A stretch of DNA of 64,000 bases from a virus. The position numbers were made by a program, and so were the translations under genes. The stretch is from the IMG/VR virus record IMGVR_UViG_3300044655_001643; one strand, 5' to 3'. Below, piece after piece: positions 28,916 through 51,006 of this stretch (positions are counted from its first letter, which is position 1; each line of letters starts with the position of its first letter). A model generated the notes under the pieces. It ran no database searches. It was not told the origin of the DNA and was given only the letters and a program-made list of their open reading frames with translations.

Positions 28916-31411
28916 TTAGGTAATAATTATCAATGTCTGTGCAGAGGCATTGCTTGTAAATGCACTTGAAACTGTCAATGATGTGTTGCTGACAATTGCA
29001 TTGATTGTTCGAATCTGATTATTTATAGCGATTTGTGTGCCAATCGAAATGATGCCTAAAGTATTTGCTATATTGAATTTGGTATTAGTACCAGTCACAA
29101 TAATAGAGCCATTTGTTGTGGACACTAAACCAGAAATCGTTTCTGAAACCGATGAATCAACCGTAGCTTCTGAATCTATAGAACGTGATATTGGATATTC
29201 AGCAAAGTTTCTGAAACCAGCAGGATGAAGCAGATTCTTCAAAATAGCTGCATACTTTGAGAATTCGGTGGCAACTGAAGTCACATAAGTGAAGTCAATA
29301 TAGTAATCTAAGCCCTCAATCTTTCTATCTAAAGAAGATAGAATACCATCAGAACCTACCCATTTTCCTGGGAAAGAAATATACGATCTTTCAATCTGTG
29401 CATTGGCTGTTGCAGTTCCATCTCCAAAGTTTCCTAAATCAATTGTAGGAATGAACTGATAACCAGCACCAGGATTTGTTATTTTGATTCGTGTGATTTG
29501 TCCAGAAACTCCAGAACCTGTAATTCCAAGTCTTTCACCATCACCCATCAGAGATGTGATTCGTAAATTCGCTGCCGAACCTGTAGCAGAAGAAACTGAA
29601 ACTGTTGGAAAGTTATTTTGTTCGTAGCCTTGACCACCGATCAAGTAACGATCAAAAGCTCCAATTCTTCTTTCTGTAGTTGTTCTTGTAAATGCAACAT
29701 TCACATTTAGTGATGTTGATGAAAGAATTGAGTTGACATATCTAGCTTCGGAGTTGATCATGATGCGGTCACCAACTGCCAACTCATTGACAAAATCTGT
29801 TCCTGTTCCGACAACAACAACATTACCCGCTGTCGTATTAGCGTTACCAGTAATTCTTGTTGGTTGAATTTCTATTCTAGTAATTGCACCAGATGCATTG
29901 GTATTTGTAACTGCTGCTGCAAATCCTCTTCCATAAGTTCCAGAAGGATTTGCACCTATTACAATCTCATCACCTATTCTATAACCAGTGCCACCAGATA
30001 TAATATCAATTCTACCAATAGAGCCGAAAGATTTTATATCAAAAGTATTTGCATACTTGGCGCCATCTGCATCGATTGTAAGATTCGAAGTGTCTGTTCC
30101 CGAATAAAGAATTATAACATTAGTCATTGGACCAATATCAGTAATCGTTGCTTTTGAAAAAGCATCAACAAGACGAGTTGCTATATTTTCGCCTGTAGGA
30201 ATCACACTTGATGGAAAGCCATAATTTGTATTTGATAATACTATATTTGCATATGTGTTGATCGTATCAGTAAAAATTGTATATGAGTTAGCAGAATTTG
30301 CGCCCGATGTATCGATTGCCTGTGACGCTAATGTAATCGTACCATCATCGTTGAATGCTGTTATGATGCCACCAAGTGCAAAACCTGCACCACCATAACC
30401 AACAGTTGCAGCATCGGCAAAACCAACAGACACTTCATCAACAATCGCTTCGGCAGGAATTTGTGGAGCGCCACCAATAATTGTTACTGGATCACCAACA
30501 TTATAACTAGTACCAGCATTTATTATTGTAATTGAACTGAGTGTAGCGACGGTATCTGACCGTATTGTAATAAGAGTTACACCATCATCGGCAAAAACAT
30601 CTGATGTGATTGTTTCGGCGTTGAGAAATGAACCTAACAAAGTAGATTCATCAACATATAACTCAATTGAAGTTTGTTGAGTGATCAATCTTGGCGCTGC
30701 ACGTTCAACAATTGCAGTAGCACCAGAAGTCAGACCTGTGATTTTTCTGTTTGCAAATAATGTTTCATCAAAATTGTCATATACAACTCTTATTTTAGCA
30801 TTGCTGGCTGGCGCAGAATTGAATACTATCTTCTTTGCTTCTTTGAGAATATAAAAGCCGCTCGTAATTACAACATTGTTTACATAAACTGTAACGTCTG
30901 AATCGGCAACTTCTTGTGGAAGAATAAAGATTTTTGTTGTGCCATCACCTTCATAATAAGAGTAAACATCATTGTCAATACGAACGACATTTTCTACTGT
31001 CCACTTGCCGTCCGATGCACGAAGAATATTATCTTTAGGATATGTAATCGTAACTTCTTGACCATAAAGAAGTCTGAACAATAATTCAAATGACTTTACA
31101 CTACCTTTTGTTAGGTATAAAGGTAATGCTTTTTTGATGAGAAGTGCTTTATCAGCAGCAGTATCTAATGGAAATAATGGTGCATAGTTATTGATAAAGT
31201 TTTTCTCAAATTGCTCTATTGAATCATCGACATCTGAAACGTGACGCAGATTTTTAGCTTGCGTAATCAGATCATTGATTTTTGTTCCTTGTTTTTGCTC
31301 AAGGAACTCATAGTACGCCTCAAGAAAAGTGACGAAAAGAGGATATTCGTCCCGAACAAACTCAGGAACTTGACGATTGACAAGTATGGATGTTCTCAGA
31401 TCAGTAGTCAT
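28916..31411 (-). CDS. gp7: Baseplate wedge subunit gp7-like
   Basis: QVPEFVRDEYPLFVTFLEAYYEFLE; KGS..SFELLFRLLY; LLHPAGF; lies between gp6 and gp8. Confidence 0.82.
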   Translation of the reverse strand: MTTDLRTSILVNRQVPEFVRDEYPLFVTFLEAYYEFLEQKQGTKINDLITQAKNLRHVSDVDDSIEQFEKNFINNYAPLFPLDTAADKALLIKKALPLYLTKGSVKSFELLFRLLYGQEVTITYPKDNILRASDGKWTVENVVRIDNDVYSYYEGDGTTKIFILPQEVADSDVTVYVNNVVITSGFYILKEAKKIVFNSAPASNAKIRVVYDNFDETLFANRKITGLTSGATAIVERAAPRLITQQTSIELYVDESTLLGSFLNAETITSDVFADDGVTLITIRSDTVATLSSITIINAGTSYNVGDPVTIIGGAPQIPAEAIVDEVSVGFADAATVGYGGAGFALGGIITAFNDDGTITLASQAIDTSGANSANSYTIFTDTINTYANIVLSNTNYGFPSSVIPTGENIATRLVDAFSKATITDIGPMTNVIILYSGTDTSNLTIDADGAKYANTFDIKSFGSIGRIDIISGGTGYRIGDEIVIGANPSGTYGRGFAAAVTNTNASGAITRIEIQPTRITGNANTTAGNVVVVGTGTDFVNELAVGDRIMINSEARYVNSILSSTSLNVNVAFTRTTTERRIGAFDRYLIGGQGYEQNNFPTVSVSSATGSAANLRITSLMGDGERLGITGSGVSGQITRIKITNPGAGYQFIPTIDLGNFGDGTATANAQIERSYISFPGKWVGSDGILSSLDRKIEGLDYYIDFTYVTSVATEFSKYAAILKNLLHPAGFRNFAEYPISRSIDSEATVDSSVSETISGLVSTTNGSIIVTGTNTKFNIANTLGIISIGTQIAINNQIRTINAIVSNTSLTVSSAFTSNASAQTLIIIT

Positions 31412-46858: not shown

Positions 46859-46935
46859 TTACTTCTCCTGTGTTGTGTGTGTTTACTGGCGAAGTGTGTG
46901 TGATGCCAGTACATATATTTAGTGATTTTATTTGT

Positions 46936-47604
46936 TCAATCCCACAAGTTCCTGTAGTATTTGCCAAACAAACGTAGACCATTATCTATACGCTCATATA
47001 CCTTGCGTAAACCGTCATAGTCACAAACATATGTGTGATTAGGTCCATATTCCATGGCAGACAAGTGTGGATTATCTTCATTCTTGACAAACTTATAATC
47101 TATTTCACCCGAACTATATTCTTGCTCCCATGAATCATCAACAAGATGCTCAAAGGCAAAAATCATTTCATCAAGTACCCAATTCCAACGAGCATGAATA
47201 TCTGCTTCACCTTCTTTGATTTCATGTTTATGGTAAAAATCAAATGTGGATTGTGAATCATAATCTTCGGTTGTTGTGTAACGAAGGTGTTCTGGTACAT
47301 CTTCTAAATCAACAAAGCCAGAACCGTGTTTTGTTTCCCTAAGTTTCTTCAACATCGGAAGAATGATTGGTGAGAGTGTGTGATCCATATTCCACACATC
47401 CCAATAATCAATCTTGACATATTGAATTCGTGGATGAACAAAGTCAAGAAACTTCATCCATGCACTAGAAAACGGATGAAGAATATCTGAGAGTTTTTTG
47501 ATGATAGGTTCATCATAATCAATTTCACGCCAAAAGAAAACTTTCTCCAGTATTGTATATGGTGAGAGCCAATGATTACGATACTTTGACGAATAAACTT
47601 TCAT
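46936..47604 (-). CDS. Hypothetical protein (start corrected to MKVYSSK)
   Basis: SD AGGA before ATG 47604; DVWNMDHTL..II.PML...W.WVLDEMIFAF...GL.LFGKYYRNLWD. Confidence 0.7.
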   Translation of the reverse strand: MKVYSSKYRNHWLSPYTILEKVFFWREIDYDEPIIKKLSDILHPFSSAWMKFLDFVHPRIQYVKIDYWDVWNMDHTLSPIILPMLKKLRETKHGSGFVDLEDVPEHLRYTTTEDYDSQSTFDFYHKHEIKEGEADIHARWNWVLDEMIFAFEHLVDDSWEQEYSSGEIDYKFVKNEDNPHLSAMEYGPNHTYVCDYDGLRKVYERIDNGLRLFGKYYRNLWD

Positions 47605-47621
47605 AATATATTCCTGAATAA

Positions 47622-47990
47622 GTGGTGGTTTTTTGGCACTAGTCCGGGTGATGCCACCAAACCCACAATTGGTGCCGACTGATTGGATAATAAGGACAGT
47701 CGGCGAAACCTCATCTAGCAATTTAGGCTGCTAGAGCGTAACTTTCATCGTTTGCAGTTACTATTTTTGCTCGGATTACGTCCGTCGCCTTTCGTGTTGC
47801 CTTCTCCACTATCTCATCCTGTCGAAACCATGTCTGGCCCATCAGAAGTGTCCTGCTGTTCACAGGTCGGGAATTCCAATCCTCAGAGTCTTGTTAAACT
47901 CTTACATATCACCCTAAACAACACTTCTGGTGGACCAGGTGGGAGTCGAACCCACGTCCAGAATGCCTTCACTTTGAAGGGATTACAACA
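47622..47990 (-). ncRNA. ssrA: Circularly permuted (two-piece) tmRNA, tag ANDESYALAA
   Basis: Minus strand: acceptor piece ...CATTCTG-GAC-GTGGG-TTCGACT-CCCAC-CTGGTCC-ACCA ending at 47928; 87-nt intervening segment; coding piece starting GGGCCAG-ACATGGTTTCGAC at 47840; tag frame GCA AAC GAT GAA AGT TAC GCT CTA GCA GCC TAA at 47755..47723. Outer ends are approximate. Confidence 0.93.
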
Positions 47991-48139
47991 ATTCCTTCCT
48001 CTTTCATTATTGCATTGAACTCATTTCTTTTGTGGGCATACCAGCCCCATGAACCAAAAAATGTAGTGCCTGGATTCGGACCACATTCTCTCAAATAATT
48101 ATCGAGTCTTTTGTAATATTCTTTTTCACTTATTTCCAT
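47969..48139 (-). CDS. Small 56-aa hypothetical protein overlapping the tmRNA acceptor piece
   Basis: Manual translation MEISEKEYYKRLDNYLRECGPNPGTTFFGSWGWYAHKRNEFNAIMKEEGIVVIPSK; GGAG SD at the upstream gene's stop. Confidence 0.6.
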   Translation of the reverse strand: MEISEKEYYKRLDNYLRECGPNPGTTFFGSWGWYAHKRNEFNAIMKEEGIVVIPSK

Positions 48140-48141
48140 TA

Positions 48142-48672
48142 TCACTCCGTCGTAAATCTAGATGAACTCTTAGTTGTTCTTCCGGGTTTCAACGGCTTGT
48201 CTGACTTCGGTTTCATTTCTGTTTGAAATGGTGCATGTGCTTTATTGAAAGCCATTTTACCTACGTTCTCTGTCTTGCCGTGTCCTGGAAAACCTGTTTT
48301 GTTTGTTCCATGTAAGGTTGCTGTTTTTCCATCATGATGTAAGATTGAGTCTTGGTTATAATGTTCTCCATGTTTTTTAATATCATGGAGGAGTTGTTTG
48401 CCGTGTTCATCTCCTTTTCCTTTAGCATGTACCAATATAGACTTTTCTTTGCCACCTTCCCAATGACCTTCTACTTCTTTATGGGCATAACCCTGCGCCG
48501 TTAGTTTCTTTTTCAACTCTTCGTGATGCTTTTTATTTTCTTCTGGAGACACCTCACTATGTGGTCGTTGTGAGGAAAGAACTGCATAATGTCTACCTTC
48601 TTCGGCATGTTTTTGCAGTCTGGCAAGAGGATTACCCTCATCTAATTGTTTGTGTTGTTTGAATGATAGCAT
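48142..48672 (-). CDS. His/Lys-rich late protein, probable internal head protein
   Basis: N-terminal MLSFKQHKQLDE resembles T4-like capsid-targeting leaders; late promoter GATAAATA at 48695..48702. Confidence 0.6.
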   Translation of the reverse strand: MLSFKQHKQLDEGNPLARLQKHAEEGRHYAVLSSQRPHSEVSPEENKKHHEELKKKLTAQGYAHKEVEGHWEGGKEKSILVHAKGKGDEHGKQLLHDIKKHGEHYNQDSILHHDGKTATLHGTNKTGFPGHGKTENVGKMAFNKAHAPFQTEMKPKSDKPLKPGRTTKSSSRFTTE

Positions 48673-48687
48673 GACGCCTCCAAATTG

Positions 48688-49353
48688 TCAAGCATATTTA
48701 TCAACATAAACTAATAATGGTTGCCGATAATCATGTATCTGTTTTTCAAAAATTTGTGCTGGACCTTCTTCAGTAGCAATCACCACCACAATATCATCAA
48801 TCCAAATGCCAGTTCGTTCAGCAAACATCAAAGCATATGCTGTACACTGCATAAAGTAGTTCTGAATATCTTCTTCATCTTTTTGTTTGGTCGATGTTTT
48901 GAAATCAATGACTGATAACTTACCATCCCATTCAGCAATCAAGTCAACTCGACCAGCGATTCTGTATTTGTCAGAATATAGGGCTTGCTCTTGTGCATAG
49001 ACTTTGCCAACGCATTCATCAATATCTGGCTTGATTTTGAAGAATAGTTCCTTCATATCAGGCATCAACATTTGCATCTTCATTTCGGATATCTCATTGT
49101 TGATGTAATCTTCACAAATCTTATGCACTTTCGTACCACGACTTGCTGCCTTACGTGACACTTTGTTGGCCTGTTCTTCACCAACAGCCTGGCGCCATTC
49201 ATAGATGGCTTTCTTATTATAATTTGAAAGTACCGTAGTGATAGACTTATACTTATTGCCTTCTGGTGTAGTATAGAGTCTACCACTATCGGTAGTTTCG
49301 GCGTTTAGATCGAATTGGAGTTGCGGCAAATTTACATGTTCAAATATTCGCAT
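48688..49353 (-). CDS. PD-(D/E)XK exonuclease
   Basis: Y.SITTVL...RGT.VH..CE...AGRVDLIAE....SVIDFKTS...YFMQ..AYA.MF.E. Confidence 0.88.
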   Translation of the reverse strand: MRIFEHVNLPQLQFDLNAETTDSGRLYTTPEGNKYKSITTVLSNYNKKAIYEWRQAVGEEQANKVSRKAASRGTKVHKICEDYINNEISEMKMQMLMPDMKELFFKIKPDIDECVGKVYAQEQALYSDKYRIAGRVDLIAEWDGKLSVIDFKTSTKQKDEEDIQNYFMQCTAYALMFAERTGIWIDDIVVVIATEEGPAQIFEKQIHDYRQPLLVYVDKYA

Positions 49354-49355
49354 TA

Positions 49356-50117
49356 TTATGTTTTCTCTGAGATATCCTCAAACTTCAATTTAGCCAAAAT
49401 GTAATCTTTGACCAGGCTTGAACGAACAATATCATCTGGCGTAAATTCTATTCTTGTAAAAGCATCCATATGGTATGCAATATCAAAAAACTTCAACAAG
49501 CCAGATACATCGTTTTTCTTTTTGTTTAAGTCGGTTTGTCTGTAGTCACCACACCAAATGATCTTTGATCGATGGCCTACACGTGTCATCACCGTATCTA
49601 TTTCTTCAAAAGTCATATTCTGCATTTCATCAACGATGATAATTGCATCATCAAATGACATACCACGAATAAACGATGTTGAAATAAATTCAATGTGACC
49701 TTGTTCTTCTAGTCTATCCCATGCATCTTTGCGACCAAAAAGTGTTTCGCATATTTGACGATATGGTTGCTGATAGATTTCCATCTTCTCATCTACACTT
49801 CCAGGCAGATGTCCGATTTCTCTAGATTGTACTGCGGAACGAACAACAACAATTTTTTCAAAAGGATTACTTTTATCTAATACTTCTTCAATTGCTTTAT
49901 ATAATGCTGAAAACGTTTTACCTGTTCCAGCAACACCATGTAACGCTATAAAATAATCTTGCCTCTTATATGCATCAAAAAATGTTTTTTGATTTTCAGT
50001 TAGTGGTTGAAACGTTTTCATATCATCCAACCTTAGTCTTAATCTATTGGTTGGTTTTGGATAATCAGTTACTTCTTCACTGCTATAAACTTGCTTTAGT
50101 GCTGCTCTCCTTGCCAT
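49356..50117 (-). CDS. phoH: PhoH-family ATPase
   Basis: GVAGTGKT; IGHLPG; FIRGMSF; IIVDEMQN; GDYRQTD; DIVRS. Confidence 0.95.
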   Translation of the reverse strand: MARRAALKQVYSSEEVTDYPKPTNRLRLRLDDMKTFQPLTENQKTFFDAYKRQDYFIALHGVAGTGKTFSALYKAIEEVLDKSNPFEKIVVVRSAVQSREIGHLPGSVDEKMEIYQQPYRQICETLFGRKDAWDRLEEQGHIEFISTSFIRGMSFDDAIIIVDEMQNMTFEEIDTVMTRVGHRSKIIWCGDYRQTDLNKKKNDVSGLLKFFDIAYHMDAFTRIEFTPDDIVRSSLVKDYILAKLKFEDISEKT

Positions 50118-50158
50118 AAATGTTCCTTATATACGGACTACAGGTTAGCATAATACAA

Positions 50159-50461
50159 TTACTGCCCAAATTTTCCTAAATGTTTATCAACAATTTTTTG
50201 TGTTTGTGATTCTTTGATAGACTTCTTGCCGTGACGATTTGCCACAGAAGATTGTTTATGATTCTCGGAAACTTTTGATAGAACTTCTTTGAAACCGTCT
50301 GGTATTTTACCAGTGATTGATACGCCACTGACTGTAGCAGTGGCTCCTATGACTTGTTGGATGTGGGGATTTGCTTTCAGAAATTCTCCACGCTCAGATA
50401 TTTTCATCAGCGCAGAGAATTCTTCACCCGTTTCTGTATTATAAAAATCGTATGTCGGCAT
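50159..50461 (-). CDS. FmdB-like small protein (start corrected to MPTYDF)
   Basis: MPTYDF.N.ETGEEF...M.ISE...FL..NPH...PDGFKEVL.K. Confidence 0.75.
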   Translation of the reverse strand: MPTYDFYNTETGEEFSALMKISERGEFLKANPHIQQVIGATATVSGVSITGKIPDGFKEVLSKVSENHKQSSVANRHGKKSIKESQTQKIVDKHLGKFGQ

Positions 50462-50466
50462 TATTC

Positions 50467-51006
50467 TTATATAGTCAAGTACCAATCTGGGACTGGTCGT
50501 TTTTTCCATTTAGCCAGATGAATTTTATTCTTAGTATAATAATTTCGATAGGATTTTAGTGAATCATCTAACACTTTTACATCATCAGGCATTGCTGGCG
50601 TTGGTTCAGTAAAGAAACCAGTTTTGATGTTTTTAGGCACCACACTCAAAGCATTTATGAGTCTTTCACATGCATGATTCTTTTCATAGCGATAAGTGTA
50701 CTCGGTCAACAGACACCGCCACATATTGTACAACCAAATGTAATTCAAGTCCGATGCTCTGGCCCATACCGCAGATGGATGATTGATATGTGATGCTTTC
50801 ATGAGTTCTTGCTCACGTTCATCAGGCAAACGCCAACGCTTGATCTTTCGACCATTTGCAGTCAAATCAGTATATTCATCACCATCTAAGATACGATGCG
50901 CCGTTGACAAGAGTTGTGCATACTCAATAATCATTTTTACCACATGTTTATCATTGTGGTATTCGGCACAAATCTTAGGATCAGAATGAAGATAAAAGAC
51001 GTTCAT
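50467..51006 (-). CDS. Pyrimidine-dimer DNA glycosylase (DenV)-like family protein
   Basis: MNVFYL..DP..CA..H.DKHVVKM..E.AQLLSTAH...H.NHPSAVW...EY..RY.K.H. Confidence 0.75.
   Translation of the reverse strand: MNVFYLHSDPKICAEYHNDKHVVKMIIEYAQLLSTAHRILDGDEYTDLTANGRKIKRWRLPDEREQELMKASHINHPSAVWARASDLNYIWLYNMWRCLLTEYTYRYEKNHACERLINALSVVPKNIKTGFFTEPTPAMPDDVKVLDDSLKSYRNYYTKNKIHLAKWKKRPVPDWYLTI

Follow-up and report, generated by a model that had tools for sequence, protein, structure and literature searches.

A predicted beta-like, two-piece tmRNA gene with a structured intervening segment in an uncultured aquatic T4-like myophage

Introduction

Circularly permuted, two-piece tmRNA genes are already known from phages. 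Buchholz et al. 2022 described one in the T4-like phage Melnitz, reported that 53 of 133 unique phage tmRNA structures are permuted (50 of these from aquatic phages), and found a permuted tmRNA in 17 of the 47 contigs that cluster with Melnitz (PMC9004378). An earlier, sequence-only reading of the locus described here had stated that phage tmRNAs are usually reported as one-piece, which these counts show to be out of date. A tmRNA database of 2025 holds 79 bacteriophage sequences, and the accompanying paper mentions only isolated cargo in the spacer between the two pieces, namely a tRNA-Ala and a repeat element.

Several described systems come close to the present locus. In the bacterial beta type (RF01850; Azonexus, Dechloromonas, Thauera, Cupriavidus), the two pieces are separated by a spacer of about 23-46 nt (29 and 32 nt in two genes read directly), which is essentially one hairpin. 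Melnitz and the pelagimyophage HTVC008M carry alpha-type permuted tmRNAs with a non-canonical T-loop. A beta-like permuted tmRNA lies near the PhoH gene of SM1 (Samunavirus; KU245542.1, 54071-54370, locus L207), a Pseudomonas phage from soil that is of siphovirus type and not T4-like. One-piece tmRNAs, represented by E. coli SsrA (RF00023), the mycobacteriophage Bxz1 group and Bacillus phage G, are single continuous RNAs with four pseudoknots. The tag of E. coli tmRNA is ANDENYALAA.

Here, a tmRNA gene is analysed in a stretch of 64,000 nucleotides from the IMG/VR virus record IMGVR_UViG_3300044655_001643, referred to as the window. The gene is one more example of the phage two-piece tmRNA; a further uncultured T4-like carrier, beside the many aquatic phages known to have such an RNA, matters little as such, and most of what follows concerns the type of the gene, its relatives and the segment between its two pieces.

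Results and discussion

Identity of the gene and of the phage

ARAGORN called a permuted tmRNA (tmRNA*) at 47632-48020 on the minus strand with the tag ANDESYALAA, and two Rfam covariance models matched far above their thresholds: beta_tmRNA (RF01850) with 152.4 bits against a threshold of 84 (E 7e-47, model positions 1-331) and tmRNA_permuted (RF04321) with 150.9 bits against a threshold of 47 (E 6e-30, model positions 1-213 of 213). The extent given by Rfam is about 47992-47649 on the minus strand, and beta_tmRNA is the top model of its clan for this gene, ahead of the alpha and cyano models. A phage-encoded permuted two-piece tmRNA had been proposed from the sequence alone, with ARAGORN and Rfam models suggested as checks, and both bear it out, ARAGORN returning the same tag as was read before. 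It is thus nearly certain that the locus is a permuted tmRNA gene. Its predicted product is a phage-borne, circularly permuted two-piece tmRNA, and the earlier comparison of its tag with beta and gamma tags was correct.

The phage genes of the window include gp32, a gp59-like helicase loader, PhoH, a PD-(D/E)XK exonuclease, baseplate wedge and tail genes and genes for large fibre proteins, at a GC content of about 38%. Its nearest cultured kin are Methylophilales phage Melnitz and the pelagimyophages Mosig and HTVC008M, followed by the cyanomyophages; gp32 is 55-57% identical to that of Melnitz and HTVC008M, and identity to gp6 of the nearest cultured kin is 40-42%. By its gene content and kinship, the window comes from an uncultured aquatic T4-like myophage. 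ARAGORN also called a tRNA-Ala(GGC) of 91 nt at 29935-30025 on the minus strand, inside an 831-aa baseplate ORF (28916-31411); Rfam, at its gathering score, returned none in the window, and the call is probably a false positive.

Anatomy of the two pieces

All elements lie on the minus strand. The acceptor (3') piece (47928..47992), delimited by Rfam alignments and by the covariation of its T-arm and acceptor stem, comes first, and in the alignment of viral relatives the invariant columns start at ATTG (47992). This piece holds the distal helix-2 strand TGTTGT (47990-47985), the helix-2 strand CATTCTG (47965-47959), the T-arm GTGGG/TTCGACT/CCCAC (47955-47939), the acceptor 3' strand CTGGTCC (47938-47932), the discriminator A (47931) and an encoded CCA (47930-47928). 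It is followed by an intervening segment (IVS-A) of exactly 87 nt (47927-47841), closed by a 9-bp helix of CAGAAGTGT (47929-47921) with ACACTTCTG (47851-47843) that includes the CA of CCA.

The coding (5') piece (47649..47840), supported by ARAGORN, the Rfam beta_tmRNA model and pair counts, opens with the acceptor 5' strand GGGCCAG (47840-47834). This strand provides G3, so that the acceptor stem holds G3:U70, the alanine identity pair. Further along are pk1, an H-type pseudoknot recognised by covariation (47769..47794), the resume codon GCA (47755) and the ten tag codons GCA..GCC (47755-47726), whose TAA stop (47725-47723) lies within the loop of helix 5 (CTAGCA/TGCTAG). Pair counts then support a 3' pseudoknot, in which ATGAGG (47714-47709) pairs with the loop CCTTAT (47695-47690) of the stem GCCGACTG/CAGTCGGC (47704-47674), and the piece ends with a terminal hairpin (47673-47654). 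The main features of this layout had been read correctly from the letters: the T-arm/CCA piece precedes the GGGCCAG piece (CCA at 47930-47928 before G1 at 47840), the acceptor stem GGGCCAG/CTGGTCC is present with 7 bp, the ANDESYALAA codons are where they had been placed, and the length and the closing strands of the intervening segment are exact.

Viral relatives and covariation

A single pattern scan found at least 119 IMG/VR viral contigs with the permuted layout, and ARAGORN called a permuted tmRNA in 115 of the 119 contigs listed. Identity of the listed relatives to the window's gene ranges from 96% down to about 70%. For the structural analysis, the window and 21 viral relatives (22 genes) were aligned with MAFFT (alignment A1) and compared with a proposed structure of 66 pairs. 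Across these 22 genes pairing is kept in 90% of cells, as compared with about 42% in slid controls, compensatory double changes occur in 32/66 pairs, and none of 500 shuffles matched the observed values of pairing and compensation.

The signal extends over both pieces. The acceptor stem pairs in 100% of cells, with compensatory changes in three of its seven pairs and an invariant G3:U70 (22/22); in the T-stem, which is likewise paired in 100% of cells, one pair covaries. The helix that closes the spacer covaries in 5/9 pairs, and together with the acceptor stem it is paired in 97.7% of cells. Six of the eight pairs of the 3' hairpin GCCGACTG/CAGTCGGC covary, and the 3' pseudoknot between its loop CCUUAU and the upstream AUGAGG is paired in 81% of cells. 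In the case of pk1, a simple hairpin (CGGA-CGTAA-TCCG) had been thought to take its place, which does not hold: this hairpin is the lower part of S2 in a covarying pk1 pseudoknot. S2 (GC..CGG / CCG.GC) shows double changes in 5/5 pairs and is paired in 100% of cells, and S1 (CGAA/GACG, the hairpin of the Rfam model) shows them in 3/4 pairs, with only two standard pairs in the window and four in most relatives.

Helix 2 had been read as three successive parts, the outer two of which, CAGGATG/CATTCTG and GCAACA/TGTTGT, are present as described: the proximal 7 bp (three covarying pairs) and the distal 5 bp are both paired in 100% of cells. The middle part, TGGAG/CTTCA, can form in the window and loses one pair in relatives (14/22); it is paired in 78% of cells. 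The same value is reached in the Rfam register, in which CCTTC pairs with GAAGG of the coding piece, and a local hairpin CCTTC/GAAGG of the acceptor piece reaches 85.5% with two double changes. These two registers do as well as TGGAG/CTTCA or better, none of the three being decisive.

Comparison with described tmRNAs

With the bacterial beta type, the window's gene has in common the permuted order, the break point and the layout of helix 2, a near-identical pk1 (CGAAAGGCGACGGACGTAATCCG; compared with Azonexus), a stem-closed spacer, an ANDExFAxAA-style tag and a 3' pseudoknot hairpin with a CCUUxUUACC loop. It differs in the spacer, which at 87 nt contains an extra structured domain, in the CCA, which is fully encoded here and not in Azonexus, and in its place in a phage genome and in a separate, much more diverse viral clade. 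Melnitz and HTVC008M resemble the window's phage as aquatic, T4-like and Kyanoviridae-like phages with a permuted form in a comparable neighbourhood upstream of gp59/gp32, whereas their tmRNAs are alpha-type and that of the window is beta-like with a canonical T-loop. In addition, Melnitz has a glutamine riboswitch (52.8 bits) after its tmRNA; no match to one was found near the window's gene even at E up to 1, and a Melnitz-like riboswitch is therefore rejected.

SM1 scores 118.6 bits with RF04321 and 111 bits with RF01850, and its T-arm and acceptor region is about 79% identical to that of the window; it sits on a long branch of the tree. Beta-like permuted tmRNAs near PhoH also occur in the Pseudomonas phages UF_RH6, PA_L9, PaMx31 and FBPa45 (soil/clinical). 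The tmRNA is unannotated in records of the SM1 group, the match falling, in those records that have any annotation, under no feature or under a 'hypothetical protein'. Finally, the G3:U70 tRNA-like domain, the position of pk1 before the resume codon, the tag ending in YALAA and the presumed dependence on SmpB agree with one-piece tmRNAs, from which the window's tmRNA differs in consisting of two pieces, in having pk1 and one 3' pseudoknot, and in a spacer that would have to be cut out.

Genomic neighbourhood

Among the viral relatives a recurrent gene order is seen: PhoH, PD-(D/E)XK, (variable genes), tmRNA, (variable genes), orf90, cell-wall hydrolase, orf85, gp59, gp32. The tmRNA keeps this place in dozens of viral contigs, at a protein identity to the window of only 40-60%. 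Synteny conserved at such protein identity indicates that the tmRNA is a long-standing and vertically kept trait of the phage clade.

The neighbouring genes all lie on the same strand as the tmRNA. The upstream neighbour encodes a SAM-lyase-like protein (48142..48672, minus strand; Pfam PF23780, E 1.8e-12). Coupled to it by a GTGA overlap is a 58-codon ORF (47969..48145, minus strand) with no PHROG or Pfam match, which runs 22 nt (seven codons and the stop) into the 5' end of the acceptor piece; a homologue was found only in L084, the closest syntenic contig, at 73% over 56 aa and with the same overlap of the tmRNA. The downstream neighbour (46936..47604, minus strand) encodes a 222-aa protein of phrog_11543, function unknown, and its presence and position vary among relatives. 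A role of this protein as a homing endonuclease driving cassette exchange was considered and rejected, as it matches a PHROG of unknown function only and no Pfam domain.

No dedicated promoter or terminator was found for the tmRNA, consensus scans giving hits at chance level. An 11/12 match to a sigma-70 promoter (48691-48663) runs across the start codon of the SAM-lyase gene; it was discarded, since such hits are as numerous as expected by chance. A late-promoter-like GATAAATA with one mismatch is located at about 48703-48696, upstream of the SAM-lyase gene, and an exact TATAAATA is absent near the tmRNA locus.

Judged by identity to single relatives, the window's locus at 46900-50500 is a mosaic. 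Between the window and L084, PhoH, the nuclease and the SAM lyase are 87-97% identical in amino acids, while the pk1 and tag parts of the tmRNA reach 63% and 52%. Between the window and L061, the tmRNA is 96% and the downstream genes are 85-94% identical, while the nuclease reaches only 57%; no PhoH or SAM-lyase match was present in the stretch of the L061 contig compared.

Type and origin

The highest beta_tmRNA scores in Rfam are those of the bacterial genes (Azonexus 313 bits, Cupriavidus locus L145 281 bits), and the window with its viral relatives (127-161 bits) and Pseudomonas phage SM1 (111 bits) match the same model; for Melnitz (106.7 bits) and HTVC008M (84 bits) the model is alpha_tmRNA. 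The window's score is about half that of the bacterial members (281-313 bits), and in BLAST its best bacterial match reaches about 98 bits and its viral relatives 160-476 bits.

Bacterial genes were sampled with a spacer-independent pattern of the coding piece, which gave 84 stretches in bacterial genomes, most of them from Rhodocyclaceae (Azonexus, Dechloromonas, Thauera, Propionivibrio, Accumulibacter) and some from Cupriavidus. A maximum-likelihood tree was built from 213 rows and 194 columns, that is, from samples drawn by sequence patterns and a short alignment with long outgroup branches. The bacterial sequences group together in a single clade of this tree (SH-aLRT 99). The window falls outside this betaproteobacterial (Rhodocyclaceae) clade and within a clade of 74 rows (SH-aLRT 96) that is viral except for six Cupriavidus rows and one MAG contig. 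On the best reading, the window's tmRNA would be beta-like and belong to a viral clade that is sister to the bacterial beta-type clade. The occurrence of a large and diverse viral beta-like clade beside a rather uniform bacterial one bears on the origin of the bacterial permuted gene.

With the alpha-type phage genes taken as the outgroup, viral rows come out below both clades, and the deep nodes have 40-61% support. A descent of the bacterial beta type from phage was nevertheless rejected, given these weak deep nodes and the higher likelihood of a tree in which all viral rows are held together (p-AU 0.96). Two origins had been suggested from the sequence alone, capture from a two-piece host lineage or an independent permutation in phage. 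The latter finds no support, because the break point, helix 2, pk1, the style of the tag and the 3' pseudoknot loop are common to the bacterial beta type and are therefore homologous. Capture is contradicted as a recent event by the large viral clade, the conserved synteny and the BLAST scores, and for an ancient transfer between phage and bacteria the sequences hold no evidence of direction.

The Cupriavidus genes form a case of their own. In a quick tree, six of seven permuted tmRNAs from this genus (loci L145, L158, L162, L166, L172, L190) fell inside the viral clade and not with Rhodocyclaceae. They have the viral CCAGAAG...CTTCTGAT spacer-closing helix, and in C. consociatus copies are found on two contigs. 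The possibility that these copies are prophage-borne was rejected from the one locus inspected (L172), which adjoins a chromosomal-looking RecD2-like helicase and a LysR regulator.

The intervening segment

The window's spacer is predicted to fold into the 9-bp closing helix and an inner Y-shaped domain with two hairpins (MFE -31.1 kcal/mol, z -2.5). Among ten distinct copies of the same spacer type, the inner fold has four pairs with double changes, and nearly every substitution keeps the pairing. Coding capacity is ruled out for the window's own spacer, which contains no ORF of at least 15 codons. An exact 23-mer of this spacer occurs in 22 IMG/VR contigs, each time inside a permuted tmRNA gene.

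The distribution of spacer types does not follow that of the mature RNA. Among the 21 relatives, spacer identity to the window is all-or-none (90-100% in eight, 34-45% in 13) and unrelated to the likeness of the mature parts. The same is seen in 103 unique viral genes sampled irrespective of spacer type, where pairwise spacer identity is bimodal and correlates with mature-part identity at only r = 0.10. Within this set, 30 of the 50 pairs with spacers at least 90% identical have a mature identity below 80%, and conversely 21 of the 50 pairs with mature identity of at least 90% have unrelated spacers. One of the 22 contigs with the 23-mer (locus L215, 9150-9600, minus strand) even has a spacer 98% identical to the window's type in a very divergent tmRNA. 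By these comparisons, the spacer acts like a discrete cassette with a structure of its own, reassorting without regard to the mature RNA around it; such a cassette is not described in the searchable literature beyond isolated notes of spacer cargo.

The tmRNA of L215, which ARAGORN missed, shares with that of Melnitz (L208, MZ577097.1, 46013-46345) the non-canonical T-loop GGCAGTA in place of TTCGAnT. The Melnitz spacer of 142 nt contains a Shine-Dalgarno (SD) sequence and an ATG-started reading frame. Similarly, 11 of 112 unique viral permuted tmRNA genes (L068, L115, L099, L050, L035, L026, L092, L022, L113, L038, L006) have a spacer with SD, ATG and a hydrophobic ORF of 22-24 codons, with the consensus M(N)DD..TM..VFA(L/I)VLL. 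Its TGA ends one base before G1 of the coding piece, and its SD sits in the 5' strand of the spacer-closing helix.

Perhaps, though we hold this to be rather doubtful, the 87-nt segment is a functional structured RNA module, such as a guide for processing or a small RNA that RNase P and 3' trimming set free. It would move as a cassette between divergent phage tmRNA genes, while in sister phages this stem-closed slot holds genes for membrane peptides of 22-24 codons. If this were true, the permuted gene would have a second use as a vehicle for RNA or peptide cargo that can be exchanged.

Proposed function

The locus is very probably a functional beta-like two-piece tmRNA gene that would use host RNase P, AlaRS and SmpB and is inherited within a clade of aquatic T4-like myophages. 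This reading follows from the signs of purifying selection and compensation seen in each functional element and from the conserved tag ends. By analogy with the two-piece tmRNA of Caulobacter and with E. coli SsrA, the gene would be transcribed along with its same-strand neighbours and then processed. The two pieces are predicted to pair through the 7-bp acceptor stem (G3:U70) and helix 2, host RNase P would cut 5' of G47840, and 3' trimming would halt at the encoded CCA, so that the spacer is released. Host AlaRS could then charge the RNA and host SmpB bring it to ribosomes stalled on broken mRNAs. A phage-encoded SmpB is rejected, as no such gene was found in the contigs of five relatives, two of them 100% complete (214 kb and 166 kb), which implies that the RNA needs the SmpB of the host. 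Ribosomes would be freed and truncated proteins tagged for ClpXP-type degradation through the signal ALAA. The likely benefit to the phage would be a supply of ribosomes, and perhaps of recycled amino acids, while host and phage mRNAs degrade.

This lack of an own SmpB would also be compatible with an RNA that acts mainly as a decoy, its tRNA-like domain titrating host SmpB or blocking host trans-translation, as has been proposed for the tag-less RNA of mycobacteriophage DS6A, which consists of the tRNA-like domain only (PMC4131195, PMC11915505). The window's gene, however, keeps a full mRNA-like domain with resume codon, in-frame ten-codon tag, helix-5 stop and covarying pk1. In more than 100 viral relatives, the tags vary in the middle yet keep an AN(D/A) start and an (L/I/V)AA end, and such variation around a retained degradation signal is not a pattern expected of a decoy. 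As the covariation shows that the phage RNAs keep a true pk1 and 3' pseudoknot, they look built for full trans-translation, and a decoy role is very unlikely. The idea that the gene is a non-functional relic, a fragment left at a bacterial att site or bacterial DNA mis-assembled into a phage contig can draw on the tmRNA fragments that temperate phages often carry from integration sites (discussed in PMC9004378). It is effectively refuted: the gene is complete at both ends and has T4-like phage genes on either side, its closest relatives are viral and not bacterial, and both the synteny in dozens of viral contigs and the compensatory substitutions speak for a maintained gene.

The cassette-like spacer raises another alternative, namely that the locus is kept chiefly as a carrier of the intervening segment, a structured RNA here and a micro-gene in relatives, which tRNA-type processing would release, with ribosome rescue being secondary. 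Such a role would fit a spacer that is 90-100% identical in 8/21 relatives and unalignable in the others whatever the likeness of the mature parts, its conserved fold with compensatory changes, the 98% identical copy in the divergent L215, and the hydrophobic spacer ORFs (22-24 codons, with SD and ATG) of 11/112 relatives. Across the clade, however, the mature parts of the tmRNA are under clear structural and coding constraint, and a role of the spacer does not exclude one in rescue; we regard the carrier as the chief reason for the gene's retention as unlikely and favour a functional tmRNA for rescue with host factors.

Two further observations concern the relatives. The locus L175 (CALMJT010000228.1), on a 46-kb contig of an 'uncultured Alteromonadales' MAG, has a viral-type permuted tmRNA with the tag ANDSTYALAA, a spacer of about 147 nt and an acceptor piece 90% identical to that of the window. 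A tRNA lies close to it, and the contig is probably of phage origin, having entered the bacterial MAG through binning. In a subset of the viral permuted tmRNAs (L046, L064, L042, L096, L092, L085, L050 and others) the tag is unusually long, with 23-31 residues instead of the usual 10; one example is ANADTFDFSAMSFTGNTV...ALAA.
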